Source: Candidatus Omnitrophota bacterium
Lineage (GTDB): Bacteria > Omnitrophota > Gorgyraeia > Gygaellales > Profunditerraquicolaceae
Direction: 5' to 3'
NCBI GenBank assembly: GCA_025453395.1
Contig: JALOQK010000007.1
Coordinates: forward strand, 6,524-70,523
DNA length: 64,000 nucleotides
The notes under the pieces are model-generated. The model made no database searches, was not told the DNA's origin, and worked only from the letters and a program-made list of their open reading frames with translations. A program made the translations under genes and the position numbers. How positions within the stretch are numbered: position 1 is the stretch's first letter; each line of letters starts with the position of its first letter. This document shows, piece by piece, positions 49,453 to 64,000 of this stretch.

Positions 49453-49599
49453 TTTTGAGTTTTTAAGCTCTTTGTGAAACTATTTGTTATCAACTTAAAA
49501 AGAAAACCGGACTGTCAAATACCTGATTTCTCGTCGGTATCGGCAGCCCGGCTATCTTAAGCTTTTACTTTTTCGCTTTACTTTTTTCGCTTTTAAGAT

Positions 49600-49620
49600 C
49601 CGTGGCTTTGCGCCCTCCGA
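49600..49620 (-). promoter_or_regulatory. Conserved leader motif CCGTGGCTTTGCG-N-CCTCCGA (+ strand), copy A. A partial second copy CCGTGGCTTTC lies at 49645-49655.
   Basis: The same 13-mer plus CCTCCGA recurs at 58524-58553, at the same relative position (about +20 to +60) downstream of a second TTGACA/TATAGT promoter. Confidence 0.5.
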
Positions 49621-49669
49621 TTTCTCGGAGTTTGCCTGTTCGTTCCGTGGCTTTCTTAACGACACTTGA

Positions 49670-49697
49670 AGTATAACATATACATATATAGTGTCAA
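49670..49697 (-). promoter_or_regulatory. Near-consensus sigma70 promoter for the operon of the 1052-aa gene plus the giant gene: -35 TTGACA (49692-49697), 16-nt spacer, -10 TATACT (49670-49675)
   Basis: The minus strand reads gcgcTTGACActatatatgtatatgtTATACTtcaag. It lies about 215 nt upstream of the ATG at 49452. Confidence 0.55.
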
Positions 49698-49969
49698 GCG
49701 CTTTTACAAAGAATTTTGAGAGCGTTTTCAATCCGGGGATTTTGGCATATTCTGTTGCGAATAATGAGGTTTGGCGCCTGCTAAAAAAGAGCTTAAAGAG
49801 CTGATATTGCACTATTTTTAGAACTCTAAAACGGCCTTTTCTTAGGGTAAGTTTGAGGGTGAATAACGGGGGTGGGTAGTCAGGAATGAGTGGTGGGTTT
49901 AGCTAGACTAATAACCCACTACCCCTGCCTACCGGCAGGCGGCACAACTCATCCTCAGATTGGACATTG

Positions 49970-50018
49970 AACGGGCAGATTGGACATTAATATTGCAGAT
50001 TGGACATTTCATAGTTTG
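49970..50018 (+). promoter_or_regulatory. Operator-like array of 3 perfect copies of CAGATTGGACATT with 20-bp centre-to-centre phasing (TTGGACATT at 49970, 49990 and 50010)
   Basis: Direct sequence. The same TTGGACATT core recurs 3 times at 60431, 60471 and 60491 over the promoter of the HTH gene. Confidence 0.6.
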
Positions 50019-50554
50019 AAACAATCTGGATATTTGGCATTATATTCAGCTATCTTGGCTTCTTTAGCAGTTATCTTCTCGCTGATTAGTTCAATTTGCT
50101 TCTCTATCGTGTTAATTGCCTTGTTTAGCTTCTCAATAGCAGAGGCATAATCGCCACCAGTAGCCTGCAATGCCAATATCTGGCTTTTTAAATCATCAAC
50201 CGTTGCCTCTAAAGAGGCTCTTTGCGCCAAAAGCCCGGTAGTTACTTCACCATCCGGCTTGGCCTCACCATCAAGCTCTTTGCGCATAACAGCTATCCTG
50301 GCCAATATAATCGGGCAATCATCTTTTTCTTCTGGCGGCTCAGGAACAATAGCGCCGCTTTTAGAGGTATTTTGAGATTGGGTTATTCCCAAAGCATACT
50401 GATTTCCCTCTCCAAAAACATCTCCTGCCTGGCGATATTTATCCTGCACTGACCTGCCCATATAAATCTTCATCGCCACTAATGCCGCGGCGATTATAAT
50501 AACCAGAACCGCATACTCAATAAAACCTTGTGCCTTATTTTTTATTTTCCGCAT
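50009..50554 (-). CDS. Flp-type pilin-like N-terminus (KAQGFIEYAVLVIIIAAALVAM) fused to a C-terminal coiled-coil domain of about 100 aa (181 aa)
   Basis: ORF track. It has the (A/G)Q(G/S/T)xxEY class-III prepilin motif followed by a hydrophobic helix. The C-terminal half has a heptad-rich sequence (LEATVDDLKSQILALQ...KQIELISEKITAKEAKIAEYNAKY). Confidence 0.65.
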   Translation of the reverse strand: MRKIKNKAQGFIEYAVLVIIIAAALVAMKIYMGRSVQDKYRQAGDVFGEGNQYALGITQSQNTSKSGAIVPEPPEEKDDCPIILARIAVMRKELDGEAKPDGEVTTGLLAQRASLEATVDDLKSQILALQATGGDYASAIEKLNKAINTIEKQIELISEKITAKEAKIAEYNAKYPDCFKL

Positions 50555-51461
50555 AGTCCACCAATATTGTGGTTATTGACATATTCTCAGAGGCATTGCT
50601 GGCATTAGAAAGCATAATATTACATTTGTCCCCGGACGGATTAGAAAAATTCAATTCGGTCAAGGCTAACTCTATCTTCATATCTGCCGCTGGCGTCAGC
50701 TTCTTGCATGAAGGACAATCCCCGGACACGCCTCCGGCAACCTTTCTTTCAATAGGCTTCATATCCACCAGGTTCCATCCTTTAGCGGACATATTATCCT
50801 TATAAAAATTGGCCACAGGCTCTATATCGCTTGAGACAGAATAAGTCGCTCTCATTGTTTTATCCTGCTCTGACAAAGTCAACAAGGATGCCCCCGGATA
50901 AACCGGAGTAACGTCTTTCTTTGGATGCGCCAGCAACTTGGGGAAAACATTTTCCGCCTCTTTAGAAGAACTTGCATTATCATTTGTCTTGCTGTATGAA
51001 ACCGTAAATCTTGTCTTATTGTCCCGGGAAAATTCAGAAGGCATAAAACTTATGATCACCTGCTCCGGGTCTTTAGAAAAATACATGGTGCGCCCCATGG
51101 AATCTTCCATTTCCGGGGTCACCCTTACTGCCGGCAGTTTCTTTAGATTCTGCATTAATTCCTGCTCTGTCCAGCCTGATGCCGATAATTTTTTGCGGTA
51201 GAAATCCTTTATTGCCGCGGCGCCCTGGCTGGAAGCATAATAAATAAAATCTAATTTTCTCCCGGCGATCATCCGCTCTTCCCTCTTGACTTCTTCCGTT
51301 CCATAAGGAACGGACAATTCCTGTTTGGCAGATCCAAGTTCCCACCAGGAAGCGGAAGCAGAATTGGCCCCCGCGGTCAAAATAAAAATCATCAGCGCCA
51401 CCGGAAACATTTTTTTACGGCAATAAAACATTTTTCTCTTCCTCCTGTTTTCTAAAAACAA
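50535..51461 (-). CDS. Exported hypothetical protein with two related domains (xFYxxxxSAxGW motif twice). The true start is probably one of the internal Met codons (MFPVALMIFILTAGANSASA).
   Basis: ORF track. The N-terminus is signal-like. Its 5' end overlaps the end of the upstream TadG-like gene. Confidence 0.6.
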   Translation of the reverse strand: MFLENRRKRKMFYCRKKMFPVALMIFILTAGANSASASWWELGSAKQELSVPYGTEEVKREERMIAGRKLDFIYYASSQGAAAIKDFYRKKLSASGWTEQELMQNLKKLPAVRVTPEMEDSMGRTMYFSKDPEQVIISFMPSEFSRDNKTRFTVSYSKTNDNASSSKEAENVFPKLLAHPKKDVTPVYPGASLLTLSEQDKTMRATYSVSSDIEPVANFYKDNMSAKGWNLVDMKPIERKVAGGVSGDCPSCKKLTPAADMKIELALTELNFSNPSGDKCNIMLSNASNASENMSITTILVDYAENKK

Positions 51462-53281
51462 TCGGCATTGGCGGTACGCAGTTCTTTTATTTGCGTCTCT
51501 ATGTCCGCGGCATTTTGCCTGAAACCATCGGCATTATCCCTTAACAGATCCGCGGAAGCAAAAAGTGCGTTGGCCTGCTCTATCAACCCGGCAACCAACA
51601 ATGCGTTTGCCTCAACCTCCGTCTCACTTGCCTGACTTTCCATAGTTGCGGCGTTTTGATATAAATCCACTACTTGCCCTTCCAAAGCCGAAACATCTTC
51701 AACAACACTTTTGCAACGGTTATAGGTTACCCCCGGGTCGTCGGTCTCCACAATCGAGGCATCATGGCGCAATACCGGTTCATGGATCTGGCCAAGCCCG
51801 GTGAAATTAACCACACTGTAACTTGTAATATCCGGATATTCTGTTTGCCACAAACCAAGATCCCCGCCTTGATGATGTTGAGTAGTCCTTAAAGTAACTA
51901 AGCGGTCATGCACAATATCATCTATCCAGCAGATGATAAAAGGAAATGACGACTCAAGGTTTCCGCTTCGCACTGGGTACGCCGGCAACAATCCTGCCAA
52001 GGCTATGGCAAGAGGTGCGTACATTGAGGCCATCGTAGCTATGGCTGCTGCATTAGATTCCAAACCAAGTGCATTCATTTTTAAACCGGCGAAATTGGTT
52101 TCTATGCCTGCAAAAAGAGCAGCTTCCGCAGCCGCACATTGCGTAGCCCAGGTATGGCAACAAGGACAACCGGCATGGCAATGGCTGTGGCAACATGATA
52201 AACAAGGCCCCACGCAGGCGCAGGCAAGGACCAGAGCATCTTCTGCGATAGTATAACTTACTCCCGCTGCCACCCAACTAGCCTCAGCGGAAGCATATGA
52301 TGCCCCTGCCGCAGTTAAGGAAGCTGTAGCTGCCTTTGCAGAAGAAATAATATTCCACAAAAGCGGCAATTCCACAACACTGGGAAGTGCCGCGACTTTT
52401 AAATCAAAGGTATCCACCTTATCAAGCTTAACGCTTGTTTTGACAAAATGCAATCTTTCCTGGCCGTCTACCCAGCGATATTCATATTCATCGCCATGCT
52501 TTATATTATCAAGAAAATCGCTAAAGCTATCCCGGTAATTATTTCTTGCATCATCGCCAACAACAGAACTTGCGGGCTTGCCGGCTTTAAGCTTTGAACC
52601 GATTTCGCTGTTCATAAAAGCGAATTTATGCGCCAGTTCAATCGCGCTTTCCCTGCCTTCTTTTGCCATCTTTCTTATTGAAGCGTAAAAATAGATCTGC
52701 GCTGCGGCAAAGGCAGCAACAGAAATAAAGATCGCTATAAGCGTAGTAGTAAAAACCTCCATTGCCTCAAGCGCCAAGCCAATAGCAATTATCGCCTTGC
52801 CTATGCTAAATCCCGCCGCAGCCAGTTTCCCGATTGCCGCTGAAGTAAAGCCCAATGCCGCGCAAGGTGACGGACATGCAGTTGATTCCGCGGAACCGGC
52901 AGCAATTACCGCGGCAGTGGCTGCGGCCTCCGCGGCGGTTGCCGCAGCCTGACCGGCAATCGCCTGCGTATGCGCCTGGATCAAGTTATAAGTAGCAATG
53001 GCAAAAGAAACAGCCACCAGCGCATAAAACTCCCAATACCCTGTTTCCATGGCTGAATTGGCCTGGGCTACGCCGTTAAAGACATTTGCCATCACCGACC
53101 CGCCGGCTAAACTTCCGGCATCAGCGGCATTGCTGGTATCGGTCTTAAAAAAAGCCACCTTGCTTAAATTCATAGTCACCAGCGACATGGTGATAAGCAC
53201 AACCAGAACCACAAGAAATATGGGGATAAGCTGGCCCTTTTTGCCGAGACGGAATTTATAGAAATGAAATCTACGGAACAT
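51452..53281 (-). CDS. tadG: TadG-like pilus assembly protein (609 aa) with an N-terminal Tad_N-type TM segment and an unusual Cys/His-rich cluster
   Basis: The N-terminus is GQLIPIFLVVLVVLITMSLVTMNLSKV ... NAADAGSLAGG (a TadE/G-like motif). The internal cluster is CACVGPCLSCCHSHCHAGCPCCHTWATQC (about 52140-52230). Confidence 0.6.
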   Translation of the reverse strand: MFRRFHFYKFRLGKKGQLIPIFLVVLVVLITMSLVTMNLSKVAFFKTDTSNAADAGSLAGGSVMANVFNGVAQANSAMETGYWEFYALVAVSFAIATYNLIQAHTQAIAGQAAATAAEAAATAAVIAAGSAESTACPSPCAALGFTSAAIGKLAAAGFSIGKAIIAIGLALEAMEVFTTTLIAIFISVAAFAAAQIYFYASIRKMAKEGRESAIELAHKFAFMNSEIGSKLKAGKPASSVVGDDARNNYRDSFSDFLDNIKHGDEYEYRWVDGQERLHFVKTSVKLDKVDTFDLKVAALPSVVELPLLWNIISSAKAATASLTAAGASYASAEASWVAAGVSYTIAEDALVLACACVGPCLSCCHSHCHAGCPCCHTWATQCAAAEAALFAGIETNFAGLKMNALGLESNAAAIATMASMYAPLAIALAGLLPAYPVRSGNLESSFPFIICWIDDIVHDRLVTLRTTQHHQGGDLGLWQTEYPDITSYSVVNFTGLGQIHEPVLRHDASIVETDDPGVTYNRCKSVVEDVSALEGQVVDLYQNAATMESQASETEVEANALLVAGLIEQANALFASADLLRDNADGFRQNAADIETQIKELRTANADCF

Positions 53282-53288
53282 ATTATTC

Positions 53289-53573
53289 CTATTTTTGCCC
53301 TGTGCCGCCGGTTAAGACTTCTTCTTCTGTCAGATTATCCGGGGCATAGACCGGCCAGCGTAGCGTGTATTTGTCAGACGAAGTCCCGGCGGGAACCCGC
53401 GAGGCATTATAATTGGCCTGCCGCTTGACGATCTGGGCGTTGCCCCAGAACCAGATCCTGATGATCCCGCCGATAAAAAGAAAAATAATAATGAAAACCA
53501 CCGCGGTCTCAAGCGTTGACTGCCCGGATCGGCCTTTCTTAATCGGATTTATTCTGCGAACGGAGTTACCCAT
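53289..53573 (-). CDS. tadE: TadE-like minor pseudopilin (94 aa)
   Basis: The N-terminus is GQSTLETAVVFIIIFLFIGGIIRIWFW. It lies within the tad gene string. Confidence 0.55.
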   Translation of the reverse strand: MGNSVRRINPIKKGRSGQSTLETAVVFIIIFLFIGGIIRIWFWGNAQIVKRQANYNASRVPAGTSSDKYTLRWPVYAPDNLTEEEVLTGGTGQK

Positions 53574-54298
53574 TGCTGCGTCCTCTCCACTGTGCCATCC
53601 TTAGAGGCCTTACTGCTGTATTTATACTGACCATCAACCGGATCACGGTAAATATACTGCTCTACATCCACCAGATTTCCTCCTGAAATAATCTTATCAT
53701 TATCATCATTGCTATCGTCGTCGTTTTCCCTGATAGTGTAGGGAATAGTTGTCCTGATGCGCTCCTTAAGGCTAGAGCCCTTAATATTAGAAATACCGCC
53801 ATAATCTTCCTGCTTATTAACATTCTCTTCAAACTCAAGATTAGATTCTGTTGTCATATCTTCAACCCTTAAAGACCTGTTTTCTTCATCATCTTCTGAA
53901 ATATAATCACGGAATTTCCTTGTGTACTCGTCTTCATTGATCCGATAGGTCATGGTATTTTCCGGCTGTTCTCCCACCTTAGGCACTGCCCAAAACACAT
54001 TCGCAGAGCCGCTTACAGTCTGGGGGCTTCCTTTTTTGAAGCTTGAAAAATCCGCGTTGCGCCGATTCTGTAATAAGGTATACTGGACAGACGCGCCTGC
54101 TCCTTCGGATTCTGACCCGATATAAGTGCACCCCTTTTGCAACGCTCTCCGGAAAGCCTCCATTTTGGTGTATTGCTGGTCGTTTAATCTTTGCATGTAA
54201 GAAATAAGCATCCCGAATAAAAAAAGGATCAGCCCGCCGAAAATGGCAAGCTCTATGACTGCCTGGCCTTTTTCTCTGAAAACTGTCCCCGCGCGCAT
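53549..54298 (-). CDS. tadF: TadE/TadF-like pseudopilin (249 aa)
   Basis: The N-terminus is GQAVIELAIFGGLILFLFGMLISYMQ. It lies within the tad gene string. Confidence 0.55.
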   Translation of the reverse strand: MRAGTVFREKGQAVIELAIFGGLILFLFGMLISYMQRLNDQQYTKMEAFRRALQKGCTYIGSESEGAGASVQYTLLQNRRNADFSSFKKGSPQTVSGSANVFWAVPKVGEQPENTMTYRINEDEYTRKFRDYISEDDEENRSLRVEDMTTESNLEFEENVNKQEDYGGISNIKGSSLKERIRTTIPYTIRENDDDSNDDNDKIISGGNLVDVEQYIYRDPVDGQYKYSSKASKDGTVERTQQWVTPFAE

Positions 54299-54315
54299 TT
54301 TACCTCTTTCTTATG

Positions 54316-54750
54316 TTACTCCTTTGAATCTACTAAACTGGCCTCTAAATCTTCATTCTTAAATTCACTGTCAGACGCTCTTACAATATCATCAGGCAGA
54401 CCCTTCTTGGAAGAAATAAAATCGTATTTATCTTCGCCGCCCGCATATTCCTCTGAACGGCTGGAACCGGTAATAATGGTTGTGCCCTGAAGGTTGGAAC
54501 TTGTGCCGCCTCCCCGCAAAAGCCTAGTTGTGCTGACCATATCAGAAGTTGTGCTGGATTTACTTTGCGCGTACACCCCGGGGCTGGGCTCCCCTTCCTG
54601 AACAGGACTGATAAAAGCGTCTGTCATATCCTTAACTTTGCCCTGGAGGCCGCGTTTAATGTATGTATTCATACCGATAAAAGCCGCGGCCACCACGCTT
54701 AAGATAATCGCGTACTCCACAAAAGACAATCCTTTATTCTGTCTTATCAT
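54316..54750 (-). CDS. Flp-family pilin paralogue with extended C-terminal domain (144 aa)
   Basis: KGLSFVEYAIILSVVAAAFIGMNTYIKRGLQGKV. Confidence 0.65.
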   Translation of the reverse strand: MIRQNKGLSFVEYAIILSVVAAAFIGMNTYIKRGLQGKVKDMTDAFISPVQEGEPSPGVYAQSKSSTTSDMVSTTRLLRGGGTSSNLQGTTIITGSSRSEEYAGGEDKYDFISSKKGLPDDIVRASDSEFKNEDLEASLVDSKE

Positions 54751-54753
54751 CTT

Positions 54754-55104
54754 TTACCTCTGGGGTTCTTGGCTAAAATCCCCGACACTCTCATCCTTGC
54801 TTATATTCTGCTCTATCCGGGTACTGCTTTCCGAGATGCTCTTATTTGCTTCAAGCACAGAGCCTGAAGAACTGTCCGCGGGATTAGTGTAGCTTGTGGA
54901 AGTTTCCGCGATCTTACGCGTTATTCTGCTGTTGGCGACTGTCGCCCCGGGAGAATACATACCGCCATCGCTTATTTGCCCGGCAGTATTACGTAAAGAC
55001 CCCTGCACGCCTCTTTTAAAATAGACAGTCATGGAAAAAATAGCAATAGCCACAACCCCGATCATCACAACATACTCCATTATGCTCTGGGCCTTGTTCT
55101 TCAT
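54754..55104 (-). CDS. Flp-family pilin paralogue (116 aa)
   Basis: KAQSIMEYVVMIGVVAIAIFSMTVYFKRGVQG. Confidence 0.65.
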   Translation of the reverse strand: MKNKAQSIMEYVVMIGVVAIAIFSMTVYFKRGVQGSLRNTAGQISDGGMYSPGATVANSRITRKIAETSTSYTNPADSSSGSVLEANKSISESSTRIEQNISKDESVGDFSQEPQR

Positions 55105-55107
55105 AAC

Positions 55108-55263
55108 TTACCTCTTGGATTCATCCAGCTCTTCCTGCGCCTGCTTTAGCCGCGCGTTCATTGAGCGCTGGATATATTGATACATCGCTATCAATGCCGC
55201 CGATATAACAATAATAAGCATCGCGTATTCCAGAAAGTTCTGCCCGCGTTTTGAATTAAGCAT
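55108..55263 (-). CDS. flp: Short Flp pilin (51 aa), absent from the ORF track because it is under 60 aa
   Basis: Manual translation gives MLNSKRGQNFLEYAMLIIVISAALIAMYQYIQRSMNARLKQAQEELDESKR*. The ATG is at 55261-55263 and the TAA at 55108-55110. Confidence 0.65.
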   Translation of the reverse strand: MLNSKRGQNFLEYAMLIIVISAALIAMYQYIQRSMNARLKQAQEELDESKR

Positions 55264-55266
55264 AAA

Positions 55267-55545
55267 CTATTCTCCGCTATCTTTTCCTGCGATGTTGCTT
55301 GTTACCGAAGCTGCCACCGTGCCCATAACCCCTTCTTTAGTCAACCCGCCCTCAGGGGCAGCTTCGCCTTGGCTTACATTTCCGGTGTCATCCGGGACAT
55401 TGTTGACTATTGCCCCGGAGGCAGTGTTAAAATAATTTTTAAATGAGCCCTTCATTTTCATAATAAAACCCGCTGATACTATCGCGGCTATTACCACCGC
55501 CATAATTACAAAATACTCCGCTGTTGTCTGGGCTTTTTTATTCAT
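55267..55545 (-). CDS. Flp-family pilin paralogue (92 aa)
   Basis: KAQTTAEYFVIMAVVIAAIVSAGFIM. Confidence 0.7.
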   Translation of the reverse strand: MNKKAQTTAEYFVIMAVVIAAIVSAGFIMKMKGSFKNYFNTASGAIVNNVPDDTGNVSQGEAAPEGGLTKEGVMGTVAASVTSNIAGKDSGE

Positions 55546-56400
55546 TTAGAGCACCTTTTTAGTCACAAAATCCAAGAGTATCGGCCCGCCGATGACAATG
55601 CCGATAACCGGAAGTATGCAGAATATTAAAGGTATCAATATCTTTAACGGCGCCTGCATGGCGATTCTCTCTCCGCGGTTAAACCTCTGCATGCGCGAAT
55701 CTTCAGAAAGTATGGTAAAAGCCTCGGCAACCGGGGTGCCCATTCTCTCGGCCAAAACAAGGGTCTGGACAAAGGAACTAACTTCAGAAATATTAAGCCT
55801 TCTGGACATGTCTTTTAATGCCTGCGAACGCGATTTGCCCCACTTGATTTCCTCCAGCACAAAACCCAATTCTTCAAGCATGGGGTTCATGGTGGTTTTT
55901 TCAAGTATCCATTTTATGGAAGTGGTAAAATCCAGGCCTGCCTCAATACAAAGCCCTAACAGATCTACTGTTTCCGGCAAAATGCGCGCGATAGCATTTT
56001 TGCGCCGCGCGATTATCTGCTTTAAGAAAATATCCGGGATAATATACCCTAATGCCAGACAAACAATAAATGTCGGGGGGTCGAATTTATTAAAACCGAA
56101 ATAAGCCGCTATGCACAAGACAACTATCAACAATATTTTCAGATTAAAAAAGGCCTGAACGCTGAATTTTACCCGCGAGGCGTCAAGCTTAAGCTTGATC
56201 TTGTCATAAATCTTGATCTTCTCCAGCATTTTATGCGTAAAAGGAAAGATATCATTAAGAAAAGAATTAAAATTAAATTTCCCTCCAGTTGCCTCTTCGG
56301 ATAATTTCATGCGCGAGGCGGAAACTTTCTCATCATACCGCGAGGCAAGAAGGATGAAACTGGCGCATCCCACGATAAAAAGAATTATTAATATTTCCAT
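55546..56400 (-). CDS. tadC: TadC-like inner-membrane platform protein (T2SS F-type domain), 284 aa
   Basis: Polytopic membrane protein with T2SSF-like helices. It is adjacent to the TadB-like gene and the pilin genes. Confidence 0.75.
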   Translation of the reverse strand: MEILIILFIVGCASFILLASRYDEKVSASRMKLSEEATGGKFNFNSFLNDIFPFTHKMLEKIKIYDKIKLKLDASRVKFSVQAFFNLKILLIVVLCIAAYFGFNKFDPPTFIVCLALGYIIPDIFLKQIIARRKNAIARILPETVDLLGLCIEAGLDFTTSIKWILEKTTMNPMLEELGFVLEEIKWGKSRSQALKDMSRRLNISEVSSFVQTLVLAERMGTPVAEAFTILSEDSRMQRFNRGERIAMQAPLKILIPLIFCILPVIGIVIGGPILLDFVTKKVL

Positions 56401-56418
56401 ATCTCTCCTATTATCCGC

Positions 56419-57288
56419 CTATACTTTTATTTGGCTGAATTTATGGATCAAAATCATCCCCACTATTTGTAAACCGCCCGCGATAATCAACATAAACCTG
56501 CCCTGCTCGTTTTGCATCATCGCGTCAAAATGATGCGGATTAAATTTCAATACCCACATCACAAAAAGTATCGGAAGAACCGACATGATTATGCCCTGCA
56601 GCCTTCCCTGAAGGGTCAAGGTCTTAATATTCTCTTTTAGTTTACGGTTATCTCTAATGGTAGTCACCAGGCGGCTGAAGACCTTGGTTAAATCTCCTCC
56701 TGTTTCACGCGCCACCAAAATAGAATTAACTACCATGCTTAAATCTTCCATCATCATTCTTTTATCCAGCCTGCGCAAACTCTCCTCAAGGGTGATACCC
56801 ATCTTATTTTCCCTTACCACTAAGCCGATTTCCTGGCTCATCGGAGCAGGCATTTCTTCAATCAAAACCTCAAGCGACTGCAAAAGGCTCAAGCCGCCTT
56901 TTAAGGAACTTGAAAGTATCATAATCGCGTCTAATATCTGGACATTGAATTTTTTGCGCCGCCTGCCATTACGGATTTTTAATATAAGATTTGGTATGAC
57001 AAGGCCCAAAAACAACCCTGCGATAGCAATAAGCGGCGAGCCTGAAAGTAAAAAGAATATTCCGGCAAATATCGGAGGCAGGATAAAGTAAAAACGCACG
57101 ATGGATTTGGGGCTTTTATCATAATAAAAAAGCTTATCCAGCTCCTGCGCTACGACTTCTTCTTTTTTTTCTTTCCAGATTTTTAGTTTATCTTCAAGGG
57201 AAGGGGCAAACGCCATAGTAAGGATCACAATGGCCGCCGCTGTCAAAAACAAAACACTTATCAAAGCCATGCCGCTAAACATTGTCAA
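56419..57288 (-). CDS. tadB: TadB-like inner-membrane platform protein, 289 aa
   Basis: Membrane protein paralogous to the adjacent TadC-like gene, in the order typical of tad loci. Confidence 0.75.
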   Translation of the reverse strand: MTMFSGMALISVLFLTAAAIVILTMAFAPSLEDKLKIWKEKKEEVVAQELDKLFYYDKSPKSIVRFYFILPPIFAGIFFLLSGSPLIAIAGLFLGLVIPNLILKIRNGRRRKKFNVQILDAIMILSSSLKGGLSLLQSLEVLIEEMPAPMSQEIGLVVRENKMGITLEESLRRLDKRMMMEDLSMVVNSILVARETGGDLTKVFSRLVTTIRDNRKLKENIKTLTLQGRLQGIIMSVLPILFVMWVLKFNPHHFDAMMQNEQGRFMLIIAGGLQIVGMILIHKFSQIKV

Positions 57289-57312
57289 CTCCTGTTATGG
57301 TGTGCTTGCCTT

Positions 57313-57669
57313 TTATTGTGGCCAGTACTCATCACTCTGCTTGGCAACTGTTTCTGTGCCTGTGCGGGTCTGCTTCTGCTTACTGACAGTAGTAGTCTTG
57401 GTCTTCGCGCCAACATCATCCCCGGCCGCAGCGTCTTCGGTTGTGCCAGACACATCCTCGGAAGATTCTGTGTTGCTGATAATTGTATATTCATTGGTAG
57501 TCTGCCCGGGAGAAAATTGTTCTCCGATCTGGTCAGAAGCTTCCCTTATTTTTCCTTGCACGCCGCGCTTAAAATATGTCTGCATGGCGATAAGAGCGGC
57601 TACTACTACGGCAATAATTACCGCGTATTCCAGAGTGCTCTGAGCTTTTTCACTATCACGCATAAACAT
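57313..57669 (-). CDS. Flp-family pilin paralogue with C-terminal extension (118 aa)
   Basis: KAQSTLEYAVIIAVVVAALIAMQTYFKRGVQGKI. Confidence 0.65.
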   Translation of the reverse strand: MFMRDSEKAQSTLEYAVIIAVVVAALIAMQTYFKRGVQGKIREASDQIGEQFSPGQTTNEYTIISNTESSEDVSGTTEDAAAGDDVGAKTKTTTVSKQKQTRTGTETVAKQSDEYWPQ

Positions 57670-57712
57670 TTTATCACCTCCTCAAGCTTTTGACCACCTT
57701 CTATTAACAAAT

Positions 57713-58096
57713 TTAATGACCGCCCAAATACCCCGGGGCAGAAGTATCTTCTTCCTGCCACCCGATAACCTGCTGACGAGAAGCATCGGTTACTTCGCTA
57801 CCCACAACTCTCTCTACCTCTCCCTCTTTCTTCAGTCTCTCTGTTTTAGTAGCATCGGTCTTACTCTGGGCGCTTGAGGAAGCATAATACGGCTCATATT
57901 GTCCGCTTGTAAATTCTAAAGTCTGCCCTCCCACATCCCCAGCTGCACCGGTATGATCCACAACGTCTTTTGTCCTTCCCTGCAAGCCCCTTCTCACATA
58001 AACCTGCATGGCTAATGCCGCGCCTACAACCAAGCCTATTAAGATGGCGTATTCTGCGGTAGACTGTCCGTTCTTTTTTCTTAAACGCATAAACAT
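57713..58096 (-). CDS. Flp-family pilin paralogue with C-terminal extension (127 aa)
   Basis: KNGQSTAEYAILIGLVVGAALAMQVYVRRGLQG. Confidence 0.65.
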   Translation of the reverse strand: MFMRLRKKNGQSTAEYAILIGLVVGAALAMQVYVRRGLQGRTKDVVDHTGAAGDVGGQTLEFTSGQYEPYYASSSAQSKTDATKTERLKKEGEVERVVGSEVTDASRQQVIGWQEEDTSAPGYLGGH

Positions 58097-58144
58097 TTTT
58101 CACCCCCCTTTTTTTATACCCTTAGCTTGCCAATTGCCTGCCTG

Positions 58145-58312
58145 CTAAAACTTTATCTTGTCTACCCCGCTTTTCATCTGGTCGCCTACATGCGTCAACG
58201 AATCTTGAACCCTATTTCCGATTACCTTGTTGGCAACCACAACTATTGCCGCGACAATGGCTGTCAGGATAACCACATACTCCAAGGTTGACTGCCCTTT
58301 TTTCTTGATCAT
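58145..58312 (-). CDS. flp: Canonical short Flp pilin (55 aa), first gene after the promoter and leader; absent from the ORF track
   Basis: Manual translation gives MIKKKGQSTLEYVVILTAIVAAIVVVANKVIGNRVQDSLTHVGDQMKSGVDKIKF*. The SD GGAGGAG lies 6 nt upstream of the ATG (58310-58312). The stop TAG is at 58145-58147. Confidence 0.75.
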   Translation of the reverse strand: MIKKKGQSTLEYVVILTAIVAAIVVVANKVIGNRVQDSLTHVGDQMKSGVDKIKF

Positions 58313-58342
58313 ATCTCTCCTCCAGTTAATAAACTGTTGTTT

Positions 58343-58480
58343 ATCCCGACGTTACGCTTCGCGTAAGTCGGGATTATTTCGGCCAAACGATTTACGTTCA
58401 CTTCGTTCCGTAAATCGTGGCCTCAATAAAAAAGCCGAGTTACCAATATAAACCTTTTTTAGGCTTTCGGTAACCCGGCT
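58343..58480 (-). promoter_or_regulatory. Structured 5' leader: three consecutive stem-loops between the promoter and the first flp gene
   Basis: H1 (58343-58374) pairs atcccgacgttacgc with gcgtaagtcgggat. H2 (58381-58422) pairs a perfect 10-bp acgatttacg with cgtaaatcgt and has GGCC clamps. H3 (58433-58480) pairs agccgagttacc with ggtaacccggct. None is followed by a U-tract on the coding strand. Confidence 0.5.
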
Positions 58481-58523
58481 AACGTTGTCGCTTTTGACCC
58501 TCCAGAAATTGCGAGCAATCGTC

Positions 58524-58553
58524 CCGTGGCTTTGCGTGGCCGCCGACCTCCGA
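58524..58553 (-). promoter_or_regulatory. Conserved leader motif CCGTGGCTTTGCG...CCTCCGA, copy B
   Basis: Identical 13-mer plus 7-mer to the copy at 49600-49620. Confidence 0.5.
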
Positions 58554-58582
58554 CAGCCGTGCTATTTCGTTGCCGCAATCAA

Positions 58583-58611
58583 ACTATAACATTTCTAATA
58601 AACACTGTCAA
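58583..58611 (-). promoter_or_regulatory. Near-consensus sigma70 promoter for the flp/tad operon: -35 TTGACA (58606-58611), 17-nt spacer, -10 TATAGT (58583-58588)
   Basis: The minus strand reads cTTGACAgtgtttattagaaatgtTATAGTttg. It starts about 33 nt after the stop of the HTH gene. Confidence 0.6.
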
Positions 58612-58643
58612 GCCGATTACCCCTAAGACAAGAAACCGTTTTC

Positions 58644-60419
58644 TTAAAGCTTAAACCAGATTCTTTTTTCCTGAAAACTGCATCCGGTTTCGTTAAGCCT
58701 TAAAAAAGCGTATTCCAGATCTTTGCGCCAGGCGCAATTTTCCGGAAAAATAAATTCCGCGGTATAATGTTTATCAAAGGCGGATAGTTTTGTTTTTAGA
58801 TTGTAGAAACGGCTTTTCATCGTCGAGAAATCCACGTCCTGATAGGACGCGGGCAAAAAATGCCACCTGAAATAGGCGTCCAGAAAATATAAATATCTCT
58901 CCAGGTACTCTTTTATTTCGGCGGGTTTTTCCTGCGCGTCCACCCAGGAAAAGAAACGCTGGGCATCAGCGGTATAAGTGAACAATTCCATTTTACGGCT
59001 ATAATCCTGAAAGGTTAATTCCGGAGCCGGCCATCTTTGAAAATAGGCATGGCATAAATCTTCTGTTGACAAGTTTGCAAGCAAAGAATTCTTCAGAATA
59101 AGCAAAGAAATCTTATCCCCTAAAGATGCTTTGACTGCGGCGCCTTTTAACGTAAACCATTGATTCTTATCCGGTTGCAGTATATTTATTTCTATGCTCG
59201 CCACAAAGATCTTCTTTCCTAAAGGCTTAATCTCAAAGGGGCAGAAATCGCTTATGGATTGAACTTTACGGTAATTGACAAATTGCCAAGGCCAAACCGC
59301 GAAGATCAAACCGGTTTTTTTATACTGGTCAAATTTGAAAATATTTATGTCCTCAAAACGCTCCCCCTGAAAAATAAGTGACGACACATAGGCATCATCT
59401 TTTCCTTCGCAGGCGTTGAATAAATCCACAAATTCTTCTGTGGGCCGTTCATATCCGGGCGCGGAAAAAAGAATCCAAATATTCTTTTCATTTAGGGCTT
59501 GGTTAGCGTAAATCCTTGTTTTGCTTAATGTTAGGGAAAAATCATAGGTTATGTAAGGAGTAGACCAAACTGTATAAAAACGCGGGTCAAAATAAAGATA
59601 CTTGCCGCTGGATAACATTATTTTCAGGCTGCGCACTTCTTCCGGGATTGTGCCCATTAAACGGCCTATTTCCGGAAAGACCATTTCCTTAACCCTTTCT
59701 AGCTCATTAAGATACGCGAGAAAATCTTCTTTGCTGAAATTGGCTCCTAATAAAGGCCAAATTTCCGGTTCCAGAGAGGGATTTAACAAGAAATTGTCAA
59801 ATAGGGAAGAATAAAATAAAGCTTCTAAGCGCTTCAACGATTGCTCGTTGTAATAAGAAGTTTTATTGAAAATTTGATTGTTCAAACGAGGCAAACCTTT
59901 AAACAAGGAATCTACTGCTTTTAAAAGAATCACCCCGGTTGTAATTGCTTCTAAGAACTTATCTTCCTGTGGTGCAATGGCTTGCGGTATAGAAACCGGA
60001 ATAAACCTTGGCTCTGGCACTGGCTCCGGAACAGGTTCGGGCTTTGGCTCTGGTTTAGGTTCAAAGATAGGTTCTACTTTGGACGGCTCTTCTGCTTTTG
60101 TTTCTTGTGGCTTTTGGCTTGTGGCTTGTGACTCACTAGTCGGATTTAATTCCGTGACAGGCTGCGCCAACGCAAGCGCCTTACGGATTCTCTCTTTTAA
60201 CTCTGGAGCAATGCTCTTTTTGGGCCTGCTTCTGCGGCCAACAGGCATACTTAAACCTGACTCTTTAAAAACCGCGTTTATGCTTGATTTTGAAATATCA
60301 ACCTGAAATTGTTCTTGGATCAATAGATTTAAAGCCCGGCAGCTTATTTTGGGGTTTTCTTTCTTTTTTAGCAGTATAAGCTGTTTTATTTCATCTGTAA
60401 CTTTGTAAGCAATCCCCAT
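58644..60419 (-). CDS. HTH-domain protein (591 aa): N-terminal helix-turn-helix, a GRRSRPKK basic patch, an (EPKP)n/(PEPV)n Pro-rich linker, and a C-terminal domain of about 400 aa of unknown function. Candidate locus regulator.
   Basis: The N-terminus KISCRALNLLIQEQFQVDISKSSINAVFKESGL is HTH-like. Its own promoter is covered by the TTGGACATT array. Confidence 0.55.
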   Translation of the reverse strand: MGIAYKVTDEIKQLILLKKKENPKISCRALNLLIQEQFQVDISKSSINAVFKESGLSMPVGRRSRPKKSIAPELKERIRKALALAQPVTELNPTSESQATSQKPQETKAEEPSKVEPIFEPKPEPKPEPVPEPVPEPRFIPVSIPQAIAPQEDKFLEAITTGVILLKAVDSLFKGLPRLNNQIFNKTSYYNEQSLKRLEALFYSSLFDNFLLNPSLEPEIWPLLGANFSKEDFLAYLNELERVKEMVFPEIGRLMGTIPEEVRSLKIMLSSGKYLYFDPRFYTVWSTPYITYDFSLTLSKTRIYANQALNEKNIWILFSAPGYERPTEEFVDLFNACEGKDDAYVSSLIFQGERFEDINIFKFDQYKKTGLIFAVWPWQFVNYRKVQSISDFCPFEIKPLGKKIFVASIEINILQPDKNQWFTLKGAAVKASLGDKISLLILKNSLLANLSTEDLCHAYFQRWPAPELTFQDYSRKMELFTYTADAQRFFSWVDAQEKPAEIKEYLERYLYFLDAYFRWHFLPASYQDVDFSTMKSRFYNLKTKLSAFDKHYTAEFIFPENCAWRKDLEYAFLRLNETGCSFQEKRIWFKL

Positions 60420-60430
60420 ATAATCCCTCT

Positions 60431-60499
60431 TTGGACATTTATTAGGTTAGATAGCAATATAACATTCAGTTTGGACATTGTCAAGGCATTTTGGACATT
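60431..60499 (+). promoter_or_regulatory. Three TTGGACATT sites (60431-60439, 60471-60479, 60491-60499; spacings 40 and 20 bp) flanking or overlapping the HTH-gene promoter, at roughly +10, the spacer/-35 edge, and -45
   Basis: Direct sequence. The orientation and core are identical to the 49970-50018 array. Confidence 0.6.
60456..60484 (-). promoter_or_regulatory. Near-consensus sigma70 promoter of the HTH gene: -35 TTGACA (60479-60484), 17-nt spacer, -10 TATATT (60456-60461). It overlaps the TTGGACATT sites.
   Basis: The minus strand reads gccTTGACAatgtccaaactgaatgtTATATTgct. The -10 lies about 37 nt upstream of the ATG at 60419. Confidence 0.6.
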
Positions 60500-60869: not shown

Positions 60870-63023
60870 TTATTTAGAAAAAGTGTTCTCTGGAAGAGGA
60901 ATACCTTTAATCTTAATTTCTTCCATAAAAGTAGGCAGCTCTCCGGTAGGCTTAAAATCTCCTAAAACCTTGCCTTGAGCATCTATGCCGGTTTGCTTGA
61001 AGGTAAATATGTCTTTCATGGCAATATGCATATCGTCTTTCATGCCGGTTATTTCAGTTACCTGCAGGACCTTGCGGCTGCCGTCGGAAAGCCGGGCAGT
61101 ATGCACAATGATGTTTACTGCCGAGGCGATCATCTCGCGAATGGCCCTTATAGGCAGTTCAATCCCGGACATTAAGATCATGGAATCAAAACGCGACAAA
61201 ACATCCCGGGTAGAATTGGCATGCACTGTGGTCATGGAGCCGTCGTGCCCGGTGTTCATTGCCTGAAGCATGTCCAAAGTTTCTACCCCGCGGCATTCCC
61301 CGACGATAATGCGGTCCGGGCGCATTCTTAAAGTATTGCGGAATAAATCGCGTATAGTTACAGCGCCCCTTCCCTCAATGTTTGCCGCACGAGATTCAAG
61401 ACGAACCCAGTGCTCCTGGCTTAATTTAAGCTCTGCGGCATCCTCAATAGTAACAATGCGCTCTTGATCGGGGATGAAAGCTGATAAAATATTAAGCACC
61501 GTGGTCTTGCCGCTTCCGGTACCTCCGGAAACAATGATATTCTTGCGGCATAAAACGCTTGCCTTAATAAAATCTGCCATCCCCTGGCTGAGCGAACCCA
61601 TGCCGATTAGCTCTTCAATCTTAAACCTTTCTTTGCGGAATTTTCTTATGGTAAGCGTAGGCCCGGTCAAGGAAAGAGGAGGAATAATCGCGTTGACACG
61701 CGAGCCATCCGGAAGCCGCGCGTCCACCATAGGGACTGACTCATCAATTCTTCTTCCGATGGGAGCGATGATTCTCTCAATAATTGTTTTAAGCTGGTCA
61801 TTGGAAATAAATTTCTTGCTGGTCATCTCTATTTTTCCGAAACGCTCAACATAGATTTCATCTTTATTGTTTACCATAATATCCGTAATGCTGGGGTCGG
61901 CCAAAAGGTCTTCCAAGGGGCCTAATCCCAACGCCTCGTCAAGCATCTCCTTGACTAATTTCTTGCGTATTTCCGACGATGAAATAAGGCTGCCCGCCTC
62001 TTCGGCAAGAAAATTTGTCACCATCATTTCGGCCTTTATTTTTAACTCTTGCGTTTTCTTACTGTCGGCAAAGGTGCGGGAATCCATGCGCTTTAAGTTA
62101 AGCTCTTCAATAAGCCGGGCGTGGATCCTGCGCTTTAAGATAAGGATCTCATCATCGCTGCTATAAACTTCCGGCTCCTGCAGTGGCTCGGTCAAGCCTT
62201 GCTGCAGCCAGAAATCCCCTCCCTTAGAAACAAGGATCTCTTTAATCTTTAATTCATCTATTCTGCGCGCTGGCAAATATAATTTCTCATTTACAGCTAA
62301 ATCCTGGGCTAAGGCTTTAATGGCCATGGCAATCTTGGTCTTGGGACTGTCTATCACAAGCGGCACCCCGCGGTTTATCGCCTGCCCGCAGATTTTACCT
62401 TCAGACGGGATTTTAGCGATGATCTCTGCCGGCAGGTTTACCCGCACCTCCTGCCAGCTGATGCTTGCCAGAGATTCCGCGCGGTTTAAAACTATTCTTG
62501 TCATGGCTAGAGGAAAATGTAAAAATTGCAATGTGTCAAGAGCCCATTTGGTTTGGTATATGGAAAGGATATCCGGGGTCACTACAAGCAAAATAAGGTT
62601 GGATTGATTAAGGGTAGCTATAAAAACATCGCTGAATTGCTTTCCGGCGTCAACAACAATATAATCGTAAGACTTATCCAGGCTTGCCAATATATTCTTG
62701 ATCTGCAGGGGATCAACATGCGGAGCTGACTGCGGACGGGTGACCGCGGGGATAAAATCAAGATTCAACAAAGAATTATGAAAAATATAATCTTCTTTAT
62801 TTGCCGCGCCAGGGGTCCTTTTTAATTGGCCTATCCAGTCAGCCATGGTCTTGGTAGGATGCATATCCAGCATCCGCGCCATGTCGCCAACTGCTTGCAT
62901 ATCCAGATCAATAAGACAGACCTTCTTGGCCTGGTCATTAGCCAAAGAAACAGCCAGATTAGAAGCAAGAATAGTCTTTCCTACTCCGCCTTTTATGCTA
63001 AAATTAACAATGATTTTTGCCAT
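60870..63023 (-). CDS. cpaF: Fusion of a TadZ/CpaE-like ParA/MinD-type ATPase domain (N-terminal) with a CpaF/TadA secretion ATPase (C-terminal), 717 aa
   Basis: The N-terminus has IKGGVGKT (deviant Walker A). The C-terminal part has VSGGTGSGKTT (Walker A), VGECRG and TGHDGSMTTVHANS blocks, typical of CpaF/T2SSE ATPases. Confidence 0.8.
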   Translation of the reverse strand: MAKIIVNFSIKGGVGKTILASNLAVSLANDQAKKVCLIDLDMQAVGDMARMLDMHPTKTMADWIGQLKRTPGAANKEDYIFHNSLLNLDFIPAVTRPQSAPHVDPLQIKNILASLDKSYDYIVVDAGKQFSDVFIATLNQSNLILLVVTPDILSIYQTKWALDTLQFLHFPLAMTRIVLNRAESLASISWQEVRVNLPAEIIAKIPSEGKICGQAINRGVPLVIDSPKTKIAMAIKALAQDLAVNEKLYLPARRIDELKIKEILVSKGGDFWLQQGLTEPLQEPEVYSSDDEILILKRRIHARLIEELNLKRMDSRTFADSKKTQELKIKAEMMVTNFLAEEAGSLISSSEIRKKLVKEMLDEALGLGPLEDLLADPSITDIMVNNKDEIYVERFGKIEMTSKKFISNDQLKTIIERIIAPIGRRIDESVPMVDARLPDGSRVNAIIPPLSLTGPTLTIRKFRKERFKIEELIGMGSLSQGMADFIKASVLCRKNIIVSGGTGSGKTTVLNILSAFIPDQERIVTIEDAAELKLSQEHWVRLESRAANIEGRGAVTIRDLFRNTLRMRPDRIIVGECRGVETLDMLQAMNTGHDGSMTTVHANSTRDVLSRFDSMILMSGIELPIRAIREMIASAVNIIVHTARLSDGSRKVLQVTEITGMKDDMHIAMKDIFTFKQTGIDAQGKVLGDFKPTGELPTFMEEIKIKGIPLPENTFSK

Positions 63024-63027
63024 GATT

Positions 63028-64000
63028 TTATCTTAAACGAAACTCGATAGGAATATCTACCCACGCCTCTTGCTTATCCATTGCAACAGGAAAGCTCGGA
63101 TAATTAGAAATTCCCCTTGCGGCGATAAGCGCCTGTTCGTCAAGAATATCGTACCCGGAAGAAACTTTAATAATGCTGTCCACGAGGGAACCGTTGGCGG
63201 CCAGATGAAGGCTGATTCTGACTATTCCTTCAATCCCGGCCTCTTTTGCTGCGGAAGGATAAGACAAAATATCTACTATTTTCTTCTGTAAAAGTATGCT
63301 GTATTGCCTTAATGCTTCTTGGGAAGATTCTGCTGAGTCTATCTTGGGGGCTGCCGGAGCGGCCAGCGCTTCTTTTGCTGCCTGCGCGTCTGGTTCGCGA
63401 GATACAATTGTAGGCGTAAGAGTAATATACAATTCAACATTGCCTCTTTCGCCGCTTCCGCCCCCGGTAAGATGAGATTTTTTACGAAATAGCATTCCTA
63501 TAATCGGAATATCACCTAACCCGGGAGTCTTGGTAATGTCTTCAGATTCTTTCTGTTTTATCAATCCTCCGATAGACATTATCTGCCCGCTGTTTATAAA
63601 AAGCTCAGTAGAGGCATTGCGCTTAGAAAATGGGTAGGCTTGCGCGGTGCGATTGGTAGTTAAACCGATATACTCCACTGAACCGGGCTCACTTACTTCT
63701 ACGTTAACCCCCAGCTTAATCTTTTCACCACCCATAACTACAGGCTTCATCTTTAGCTTAATGCCGTATTCCTTATATTCTACATCTGTGCCTTCGGCGC
63801 CGCTACTACCGCTTACAGTAGTAGTAAAAATAGGTTTCTCTCCGCCCACTAACAATTCTGCTTCTTTGCCGCTCTGACATGCCAGGCGCGGACGGGAAAG
63901 AATCTTGGCTTTTCCTTCTTGGACTAAGGCGTTTAAAGTCCAGGCAAAAGCCGTGCGATTCAGATTGGAAACACTAAAAAGATTTGACCACTTAGCTCCG
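63028..64000 (-). CDS. rcpA: RcpA/CpaC-type secretin, 3' part (the N-terminus lies beyond the window end), with an appended C-terminal TonB_C-like domain
   Basis: The secretin block is GLGDIPIIGMLFRKKS...NVELYITLTPTIVS. The frame stays open to position 64000. The C-terminal 90 aa YPSAAKEAGIEGIVRISLHLAANGSLVDSIIKVSSGYDILDEQALIAARGISNYPSFP match the TonB C-terminal signature. Confidence 0.75.
   Translation of the reverse strand, partial: GAKWSNLFSVSNLNRTAFAWTLNALVQEGKAKILSRPRLACQSGKEAELLVGGEKPIFTTTVSGSSGAEGTDVEYKEYGIKLKMKPVVMGGEKIKLGVNVEVSEPGSVEYIGLTTNRTAQAYPFSKRNASTELFINSGQIMSIGGLIKQKESEDITKTPGLGDIPIIGMLFRKKSHLTGGGSGERGNVELYITLTPTIVSREPDAQAAKEALAAPAAPKIDSAESSQEALRQYSILLQKKIVDILSYPSAAKEAGIEGIVRISLHLAANGSLVDSIIKVSSGYDILDEQALIAARGISNYPSFPVAMDKQEAWVDIPIEFRLR

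Follow-up and report, generated by a model that had tools for sequence, protein, structure and literature searches.

DNA-binding regulators that derive from transposases include Pax, CENP-B and FHY3/FAR1 in eukaryotes and the TnpB-derived TldR repressors in bacteria. The Mu repressor shares the DNA-binding domain of MuA, the IS110-related protein Piv is the invertase of the Moraxella pilin genes, and the Tc1-type transposase Sleeping Beauty carries a GRRR AT-hook-like motif beside its helix-turn-helix (HTH). GalR, LacI and lambda CI are autoregulated repressors with operators that flank the core promoter and with cooperative or looping modes of binding. The Omnitrophota are widespread, mostly uncultured and ultra-small bacteria thought to be predators or parasites, and their Tad pilus locus with its adjacent giant genes is the main genomic evidence for such a lifestyle; to our knowledge, nothing is known about the control of this locus and its giant genes. 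Here we analyzed a 64-kb stretch of a Candidatus Omnitrophota genome (contig JALOQK010000007.1; the whole stretch is called the window) and describe a 591-amino-acid (aa) protein encoded in its Tad/Flp pilus locus, which we call REG, together with two clusters of short DNA sites, one at the REG promoter and one at the end of the pilus operon. The arrangement suggests that REG would be a sequence-specific DNA-binding regulator dedicated to the Omnitrophota pilus and giant-gene locus. The following features underlie this proposal.

58644 to 60419, minus strand: REG gene, encoding the 591-aa protein, with an ATG start (open reading frame list).
60431 to 60499, minus strand: proximal cluster of three AATGTCCAA sites, a layout that recurs in 72 of 75 related loci.
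60456 to 60484, minus strand: sigma-70-type promoter of REG, with an 11/12 match in the promoter scan and a TG extension.
49957 to 50008, minus strand: distal cluster of three AATGTCCAATCT sites at 20-bp spacing, which starts at the stop codon of the gene that closes the pilus operon.

The motif TTGGACATT is present in six exact copies in the window compared to 0.67 expected, and none of 100 shuffled sequences reached six. All copies lie on the plus strand, three at 49960, 49980 and 50000 and three at 60431, 60471 and 60491; on the strand of the genes the window site reads AATGTCCAA and the conserved site AATGTCCAATCT. Both arrays are direct repeats, and copies with one mismatch occur in the window at chance level and added nothing. 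The proximal cluster sits in the 103-bp gap between a DUF192 gene and the REG start codon, where the promoter consists of TTGACA (60484–60479), a 17-nucleotide (nt) spacer and TATATT (60461–60456). One site (60499–60491) lies 6 bp upstream of the -35 element, another (60479–60471) overlaps the -35 element and the spacer, and the third (60439–60431) is located in the 5' untranslated region (UTR) and abuts the Shine-Dalgarno sequence GAGGG. From this site geometry, upstream of -35, overlapping -35 and in the 5' UTR, an autorepressed promoter is predicted.

We compared 75 species-level loci whose REG proteins are only 30–40% identical to that of the window. In 72 of them, the 150 bp upstream of REG contain AATGTCCA on the coding strand. 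In total, 106 forward and 8 reverse copies were counted in these upstream regions, which corresponds to a density of ~9.4 per kb and a ~280-fold excess over the background of 0.034 per kb per strand. The site consensus is (A/T)AATGTCCAATCTGG. The proximal site starts 16–20 nt before the start codon in ~49 loci and runs into the Shine-Dalgarno sequence (AATGTCCAATCTGGAGG), while a second site, sometimes as the variant [ACT]GTCCAATCT, is placed a few bp upstream of a conserved TTGACA. An extra, inverted copy, TTGGACAT, is seen in the spacer between -35 and -10 in L005, L012, L018, L020, L023 and L035 (L numbers denote individual related loci), mainly where REG and the pilin operon are divergently transcribed.

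A position-weight scan revealed a second cluster of two to three sites ~9–12 kb downstream in many loci. It comes right behind the pilus operon, regardless of which gene closes the operon, and it is oriented with the operon even where REG is inverted. Equivalents of this distal cluster were found at the operon end in at least 14 loci from genomes and in 35 or more from metagenomes. After a gap of 200–350 bp, a GAAARCG box is followed by a promoter close to consensus, a c-di-GMP-I riboswitch and, last, the giant gene. Tandem exact 12-mers were detected in 78 metagenome loci, of which 35 are of the distal type and one is proximal; a handful of the metagenome arrays are chance matches in unrelated bacteria. 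Of the metagenome loci examined further, four carry a c-di-GMP riboswitch on the contig, adjoining the array where this was checked.

The spacings between adjacent sites on the same strand peak at 21, 30–31, 40, 52 and 63–64 bp. The best period is 10.6 bp (vector strength 0.40, Rayleigh p~1e-14, n=199), a p-value that is optimistic because the statistic counts related loci as independent. With this period the sites fall on one face of the helix, which predicts cooperative protein binding to DNA. Taken together, the arrays look like a conserved operator system and not like transposon ends.

Among the proteins of the conserved module, REG alone has a recognizable DNA-binding domain. We aligned 42 family members and used the alignment for AlphaFold2 predictions, which divide the protein into three parts.

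60222 to 60419, minus strand: aa 1–66, three-helix HTH and conserved basic arm SMPVGRRxKKKR.
59958 to 60221, minus strand: aa 67–154, disordered Pro/Glu/Lys-rich linker with (EPKP)n.
58647 to 59957, minus strand: aa 155–591, conserved C-terminal domain.

In the full-length model the HTH helices span residues 9–21, 27–38 and 44–54, and the recognition helix, helix 3, carries an invariant VSKSSIN that includes S43-K44-S45 and N48. Mean pairwise identity is 58% in the HTH head (aa 1–66), 44% in the C-terminal domain and 23% in the linker. The HTH, with its invariant VSKSSIN, is thus the best-conserved part of the protein and parallels the near-invariant core of the DNA site, which supports the pairing of REG with the sites. 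Matches of the head to known families stay below threshold and recur across the 42 members: HTH_33 in 31, HTH_32 in 30 and HTH_Tnp_Tc3_2 in 19 (Pfam), and the NCBIfam IS630 model in 32. For REG itself, residues 8–86 align with positions 58–138 of the 299-position IS630 model (E=2.8e-5, below the family cut-off), and Foldseek matched the head to the paired domains of Pax5 and Pax6 (prob 0.99). The REG HTH is clearly of the IS630/Tc1/Pax (paired-like) type, as a single HTH unit.

Residues 61–154 are modeled largely at low confidence, with a predicted local distance difference test score (pLDDT) below 50 over most of their length, and we read this region as a disordered, low-complexity linker; its length varies from 25 to 322 aa in the family. 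The basic patch GRRSRPKK starts at aa 61 and EPKPEPKPEPVPEPVPEP at aa 120. In the window the arm is P-V-G-R-R-S-R-P-K-K and the family consensus is P-V-G-R-R-x-K-K-K-R. A canonical AT-hook with its core R-G-R-P was rejected for this patch, which has G-R-R in place of G-R-P and is AT-hook-like at most.

An earlier sequence-only reading of this DNA had proposed an N-terminal HTH, and the three-helix bundle of the AlphaFold2 model, the recurrent transposase HTH matches and the Pax match bear this out. Its AT-hook-like patch is retained as a conserved basic arm and not as an AT-hook, and the (EPKP)n linker that it placed ahead of a large C-terminal domain agrees with the low pLDDT of residues 61–154 and the folded residues 157–591. 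It had also described an operator array at the REG promoter, which we recover in 72 of 75 loci, where its position with respect to promoter and Shine-Dalgarno sequence is fixed. As for its candidate master regulator, the comparative evidence strongly favors a DNA-binding regulator, whereas the word master goes further and is inference.

To place REG in its genomic context, we confirmed its open reading frame as a real gene on the minus strand from the open reading frame list and translation. The protein is identical in sequence to a "hypothetical protein" of a Candidatus Omnitrophica metagenome-assembled genome (MAG). The homologue search returned 73 relatives at 31–40% identity, every one a hypothetical protein, in clusters of 1–13 sequences, and when one genome of each GTDB species was scanned, a relative turned up in 109 species, of which essentially all belong to the Omnitrophota. 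The REG family is therefore unannotated and Omnitrophota-specific. We retrieved 80 REG loci from 78 assemblies; the two MAGs with two copies each have two Tad loci, with one REG per locus. REG always lies within a Tad/Flp pilus locus that precedes giant genes. The gene order is colinear (CpaE/F, DUF192, REG, pilins) in 59 of 72 genome loci, REG is inverted at the same place in 6 of the 72, and in a few it stands ahead of the secretin-ATPase module. The fixed place, the single copy per locus and the contrast with IS4 given below argue that REG is a vertically inherited core component of the locus and is not mobile. The neighboring genes of the window are the following.

60870 to 63023 and 63028 to 63855, minus strand: CpaE(ParA-like)/CpaF fusion ATPase of ~717 aa and secretin with TonB_C domain.
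58145 to 58312, minus strand: first Flp-type pilin gene, 55 aa, with the motif G/QSTLEY in its translation.
3 to 49452, minus strand: downstream unit, a 1052-aa open reading frame (46294–49452) and then the giant gene.

On the 5' side of REG are the secretin gene, the gene for the 717-aa CpaE/CpaF-type ATPase and the DUF192 gene; on its 3' side are Flp-type pilins, TadB, TadC, minor pilins and a TadG-like gene. The giant gene directly follows the 1052-aa open reading frame and runs without a stop for 15,433 codons, from 46301 down to 3, where it leaves the window. Giant genes of this kind have been reported for Omnitrophota, and the window locus corresponds to the described "secretion-system locus upstream of giant genes" (10.1101/2023.11.21.568195; PMC10066038). 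The descriptions of this locus (10.1101/2023.11.21.568195; PMC10066038; a 2026 preprint) mention no REG gene, locus regulator or riboswitches.

Two of the transcription units in the window have riboswitches in their leaders.

58466 to 58573, minus strand: c-di-GMP-I riboswitch (Rfam RF01051) in the Flp pilin leader, directly 3' of REG.
49538 to 49645, minus strand: c-di-GMP-I-GGC riboswitch (Rfam RF03167) in the leader ahead of the 1052-aa and giant genes.
58583 to 58643, minus strand: pilin-operon promoter with an upstream GAAAACG box.
49670 to 49729, minus strand: promoter of the giant-gene unit with a GAAAACG box.

Both riboswitches exceed their gathering scores (37.8 bits against 35 for RF01051; 60.5 bits against 59 for RF03167) and both lie downstream of near-consensus sigma-70 promoters. 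The pilin promoter consists of TTGACA (58611–58606), a 17-nt spacer and TATAGT, with the box at 58643–58637. At the giant-gene promoter, which is ~260 bp downstream of the distal cluster, TTGACA (49697–49692) is followed by a 16-nt spacer and TATACT, and the box is at 49729–49723. The box, GAAA(A/G)CG, is thus located 26 bp upstream of -35 at both riboswitch promoters. It is also present in L008–L054, L091, L103, L129 and L133, and relatives show a near-palindrome, GAAGCGCTTTC; the box may be the binding site of a second, dimeric factor. Equivalent riboswitches are found in the related loci L089, L104, L117 and L135. A strict riboswitch regular expression under-detects the pilin-leader riboswitch (16 of 62 loci) and was not used as evidence. 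In the gene tables of two relatives (L003 and L005), FIST, histidine-kinase and GGDEF response-regulator genes flank the locus, which again points to c-di-GMP control.

On the basis of these data, we consider it fairly probable that REG reads the sites through its HTH and basic arm, represses its own promoter and, at the distal cluster, affects the giant-gene unit or the boundary between the units. In this mechanism the transposase/Pax-type HTH and the arm would recognize the asymmetric site AATGTCCAATCT(G), and the C-terminal domain on its disordered tether would most likely oligomerize and place several protomers on one face of the DNA. Occupied sites just upstream of -35 and between -10 and the Shine-Dalgarno sequence would then produce negative autoregulation, and REG possibly also blocks read-through from the upstream secretin and ATPase genes. 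From the distal cluster REG could act as a regulator of the giant-gene unit, as an insulator between this unit and the pilus operon, or in both ways, and it might bridge the two clusters. The c-di-GMP riboswitches on the pilin and giant-gene leaders would form a second layer of control. The data show the domain anatomy, the synteny across the phylum, the single copy and the conservation, placement and helical phasing of the sites; we infer the binding of the sites by REG, the sign of the regulation and the looping.

Several observations weigh against this proposal, among them the optimism of the phasing statistic noted above. REG appears linked to the motif by association. Between the distal cluster and the next promoter there are 200–350 bp, more than simple operator action can span, and on this ground we rejected the cluster as a plain operator of the giant-gene promoter. 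Moreover, there is no site at the pilin promoter in the window, and a C-terminal domain of ~435 aa with 44% mean identity exceeds what dimerization needs and may have an additional or different activity. We regard the distal cluster as most plausibly one component of a module that lies upstream of giant or large genes. In agreement with this, four metagenome arrays precede genes for large secreted proteins without pilus genes nearby, and such sites suggest a wider regulon.

Tandem sites of the REG type were noted at L091 5534–5575, L103 11472–11512, L129 2531–2572 and L133 8175–8206, ahead of open reading frames for large secreted proteins of 374 to >1752 aa, most of them cut by the contig end. 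In L091, L103 and L133 the array begins where a 217-aa gene ends, at its stop codon, and the translation of this gene in L091 looks like an RsmI-type methyltransferase; in L129 the upstream open reading frame has 508 aa. In L142, the 12-mer (3135–3167, with two more matches) is a coding repeat (peptide ..MSNLE..) in the linker of a 399-aa open reading frame that reads as ParA-like; this is a chance match to the DNA pattern in an unrelated contig.

We next asked whether the C-terminal domain is a DDE transposase. The domain (157–591, ~435 aa) is predicted to be folded and, when modeled alone, reached a pLDDT of 90.8 and a predicted template-modeling score of 0.90. It is built of a helical part, an α/β part, a β-rich part and a further helical part, and its conserved motifs are YLDGQ.HTVWS (with D278), FMAPGY, WPWQF and ILSNL...Y..RWPNLEE.F.DYSRK. 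Residues D278, A320, W376, Q379, R384, Y459, W463, P464, D472, E478, R574, N576 and E577 are invariant. No sequence or profile match of the domain was found in Pfam, NCBIfam (42 members each) or the PDB. No DDE family was among the Pfam matches at E<=1 for any member; of the NCBIfam DDE models only IS4_1 (E=0.058, two members) and IS701 (E=0.2, one member) appeared, and neither reached threshold. The DDE_3 (DD34E/D) domain was likewise not found, neither as a Pfam hit nor through the IS630 model, which covers only positions 58–138 of 299. As to the catalytic triad, the invariant D278 could be the first Asp and a Glu is retained at E467/E468, whereas no conserved acidic residue stands at the second Asp in either register (FMAPGY with the invariant A320, or KK..FIFG), the register itself being uncertain. 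The family is therefore without a complete DDE triad.

The structural comparisons gave a weak signal. Tn5 chains were the top PDB matches of Foldseek for both the full-length and the domain-only models over ~450 columns. With the domain-only model they took ranks 1–3, 5 and 6 at E~0.02, prob 0.25–0.35, a template-modeling (TM) score of ~0.2 and a root mean square deviation of ~16 Å, and in a control against a viral library random matches also reached E~0.02, so that the Tn5 matches are at the noise floor. In its succession of elements (α/β, β-rich insert, helix with Y..RW..EE) the C-terminal domain does resemble Tn5, and the family motifs can be set beside those of IS4: YLDGQ.HTVWSTP with AIDGV.WRTPDTP, FMAPGY with LMDKGY, and ILSNL..YL.RWPNLEE.F.DYSRK with LLTS..LY.HRWEIE. 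In hhalign, the domain profile gave no signal with a single Tn5 sequence (checked against the PDB), E=0.35 with an IS4 profile of low diversity, and a score of 32.4 (P=0.0027) with a diverse 80-sequence IS4 profile. The reversed profile scored 13.8, column shuffles 17.2±3.0 (z~5) and block shuffles 23.3±2.5 (highest score 28). With only the 34 columns of the C1 block the score was 30 (P=0.0014), while the domain outside this block, the putative RNase H core, gave only P~0.3–0.5. The block-shuffle and sub-profile controls thus show that the IS4 signal is essentially the C1 block, and we do not claim IS4 membership. The C1 region reads Y459-x2-R462-W-P-N-L-E467-E468-x-F-x-D-Y-S-R475-K476, with one-residue insertions relative to Y-(2)-R-(3)-E-(6)-K. 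Overall, descent of the domain from an IS4/Tn5-like transposase seems plausible and, by our estimate from weak sequence and model signals, somewhat favored. The regulator and transposase readings are then not alternatives; REG appears to be a regulator that was assembled, at least in part, from pieces of transposases.

This leads to a possible, if doubtful, variant in which REG is a catalytically disabled IS4/Tn5-type transposase that synapses the two clusters and loops out the ~10.4-kb pilin/platform module, thereby switching or insulating the expression of pilus and giant protein, perhaps on a signal from c-di-GMP or some other ligand that the C-terminal domain binds. An enzyme that still rearranges DNA, cutting, inverting or excising the ~10.4-kb segment or its own gene and so causing phase variation of the pilus, would be compatible with the weak IS4/Tn5-like signals, with the invariant D278, D472 and E478 and the retained E467/E468, with the position of the clusters on either side of the pilin/platform module and with the inversion of REG relative to its neighbors in 6 of 72 genome loci and in L005. 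Inverted repeats moreover flank the inverted segment in L005 (125 nt, 95%) and L020 (36 nt, 97%). These arms are, however, copies of a repetitive extragenic palindrome (REP)-like hairpin and not of the REG site, the L005 pair encloses DUF192 as well, and the window has no such repeat around REG; the clusters are direct and not inverted repeats, no contig was seen without the bracketed segment, and the second catalytic Asp is missing, with an invariant Ala-Pro-Gly in FMAPGY, or KK..FIFG, at its place. We therefore regard a rearranging enzyme as improbable. The sequence-only reading had also considered REG an active transposon protein with the arrays as element ends. Read in this way, the arrays would be the ends of a composite element (49,957–60,499) with the pilus genes as cargo, and a transposase-type HTH and bracketing arrays are indeed present. 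Yet REG occupies the same place between DUF192 and the pilins, with the same flanks, in more than 70 species; it is single-copy per locus, and its clusters hold 1–13 sequences compared to 8834 and 3088 for IS4 (a contrast drawn from a homologue search with E. coli InsG, which returned only near-identical IS4 copies); the arrays are direct, there are no terminal inverted repeats, no DDE family matches at threshold and the triad is incomplete. An active insertion sequence is thus rejected as an explanation. Absence or mobility of the segment in related genomes, which that reading had raised, is contradicted by the shared flanks and by the lack of any contig without it, and a clear DDE match with conserved triad and target-site duplications, which it had named as evidence against a regulator, was looked for and not found. 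Its observation that the arrays bracket the pilin/platform module holds and extends across loci, and its domesticated transposase is upheld for the IS630/Tc1/Pax-type HTH and stays tentative for the C-terminal domain.

It is also conceivable that a factor other than REG binds the AATGTCCAATCT sites, or that they serve as promoter or UP-type elements, and that REG is simply co-regulated, for example as a pilus-assembly or nucleoid-associated protein. The assignment of the sites to REG by association leaves room for this, and the GAAARCG box 26 bp upstream of -35 at both riboswitch promoters indicates at least one more factor in the locus. Nevertheless, the sites are most tightly and universally tied to the REG start codon (72 of 75 loci), no other protein of the conserved module has a recognizable DNA-binding domain, and asymmetric sites in phased direct repeats suit an oligomerizing, monomeric reader with HTH and arm, which makes this explanation unlikely. 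A role at the RNA level, with the promoter-proximal site as a 5'-UTR element that controls translation beside the Shine-Dalgarno sequence, would account for the fact that this site is transcribed and abuts GGAGG in most loci. The remaining sites, however, are upstream of -35, untranscribed or 3', and some are inverted; the site sequence offers no stable RNA hairpin, and the spacing tracks the 10.6-bp helical repeat of DNA, so that the phasing argues against an RNA-level role, which we judge highly improbable.

The REP-like hairpin, AGGGAC..CCAATCGG..GGGTGTCCC, was noted in intergenic DNA of L005, L020, L008, L013, L017, L019, L036 and L135. Its inverted copies flank REG in two of the loci in which REG is inverted relative to the operon.

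L005, 9252 to 9376 and 12129 to 12253: inverted REP-like copies flanking REG.
L020, 9770 to 9805 and 12334 to 12369: inverted REP-like copies flanking REG.

An invertible switch was considered from these repeats and set aside, as the arms are a common REP-like hairpin and the window has none. The copies may have mediated the inversion of REG in L005 and L020.

Our preferred reading, a locus-dedicated DNA-binding regulator, offers a testable layout: a phylum-specific predicted DNA-binding protein with a 12–14-bp site, two clusters, two riboswitches and a further promoter box. If its C-terminal domain is transposase-derived, REG would be a rare case of a bacterial transposase turned into a fixed, locus-specific regulator across a phylum, and if the looping reading is true, it would be a bacterial regulator acting by way of a synaptic complex of transposase origin.

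Compared to IS630/Tc1-mariner transposases and the Pax paired domain, REG likewise combines a three-helix HTH with a basic Gly-Arg arm behind it and shows sub-threshold but recurrent matches. In contrast to these proteins, REG has one HTH unit and not a bipartite pair, and unlike IS630/Tc1-mariner it lacks a DDE_3 domain and is encoded by a fixed, single-copy gene. As for Tn5/IS4 (DDE_Tnp_1), the C-terminal domain resembles Tn5 in the order of its elements, and ILSNL..LA..YL.RWPNLEE.F.DYSRK aligns with IS4 LLTSL..Ei..LY..RWEIE (hhalign P~0.001–0.003), whereas a threshold match, the second Asp and terminal inverted repeats are missing, the YREK spacing is altered and the gene is single-copy.

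The proposed role resembles those of Pax, CENP-B, TldR and the Mu repressor in that a transposase DNA-binding module would read fixed chromosomal sites, and, as with TldR (flagellin) and Piv (pilin), the regulated locus would encode a surface appendage. REG belongs to another transposase lineage and combines an HTH, a long disordered linker and a large orphan domain, its recognition would be by protein and not by a guide RNA as in TldR, and, in contrast to the transposase-derived regulators, it has phased direct-repeat clusters at two ends of an operon. Like the operators of GalR, LacI and lambda CI, the REG sites lie upstream of -35 and downstream of -10, ~63 bp (six turns) apart on one face, and the locus also has a remote second cluster; here, however, the sites are asymmetric direct repeats and not palindromes, the remote cluster is ~10 kb away and the protein is unrelated. 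Transposase-derived regulators are known, commonly in eukaryotes and in a few cases in bacteria, and what is new in REG is its lineage, its architecture and the arrangement of its sites.

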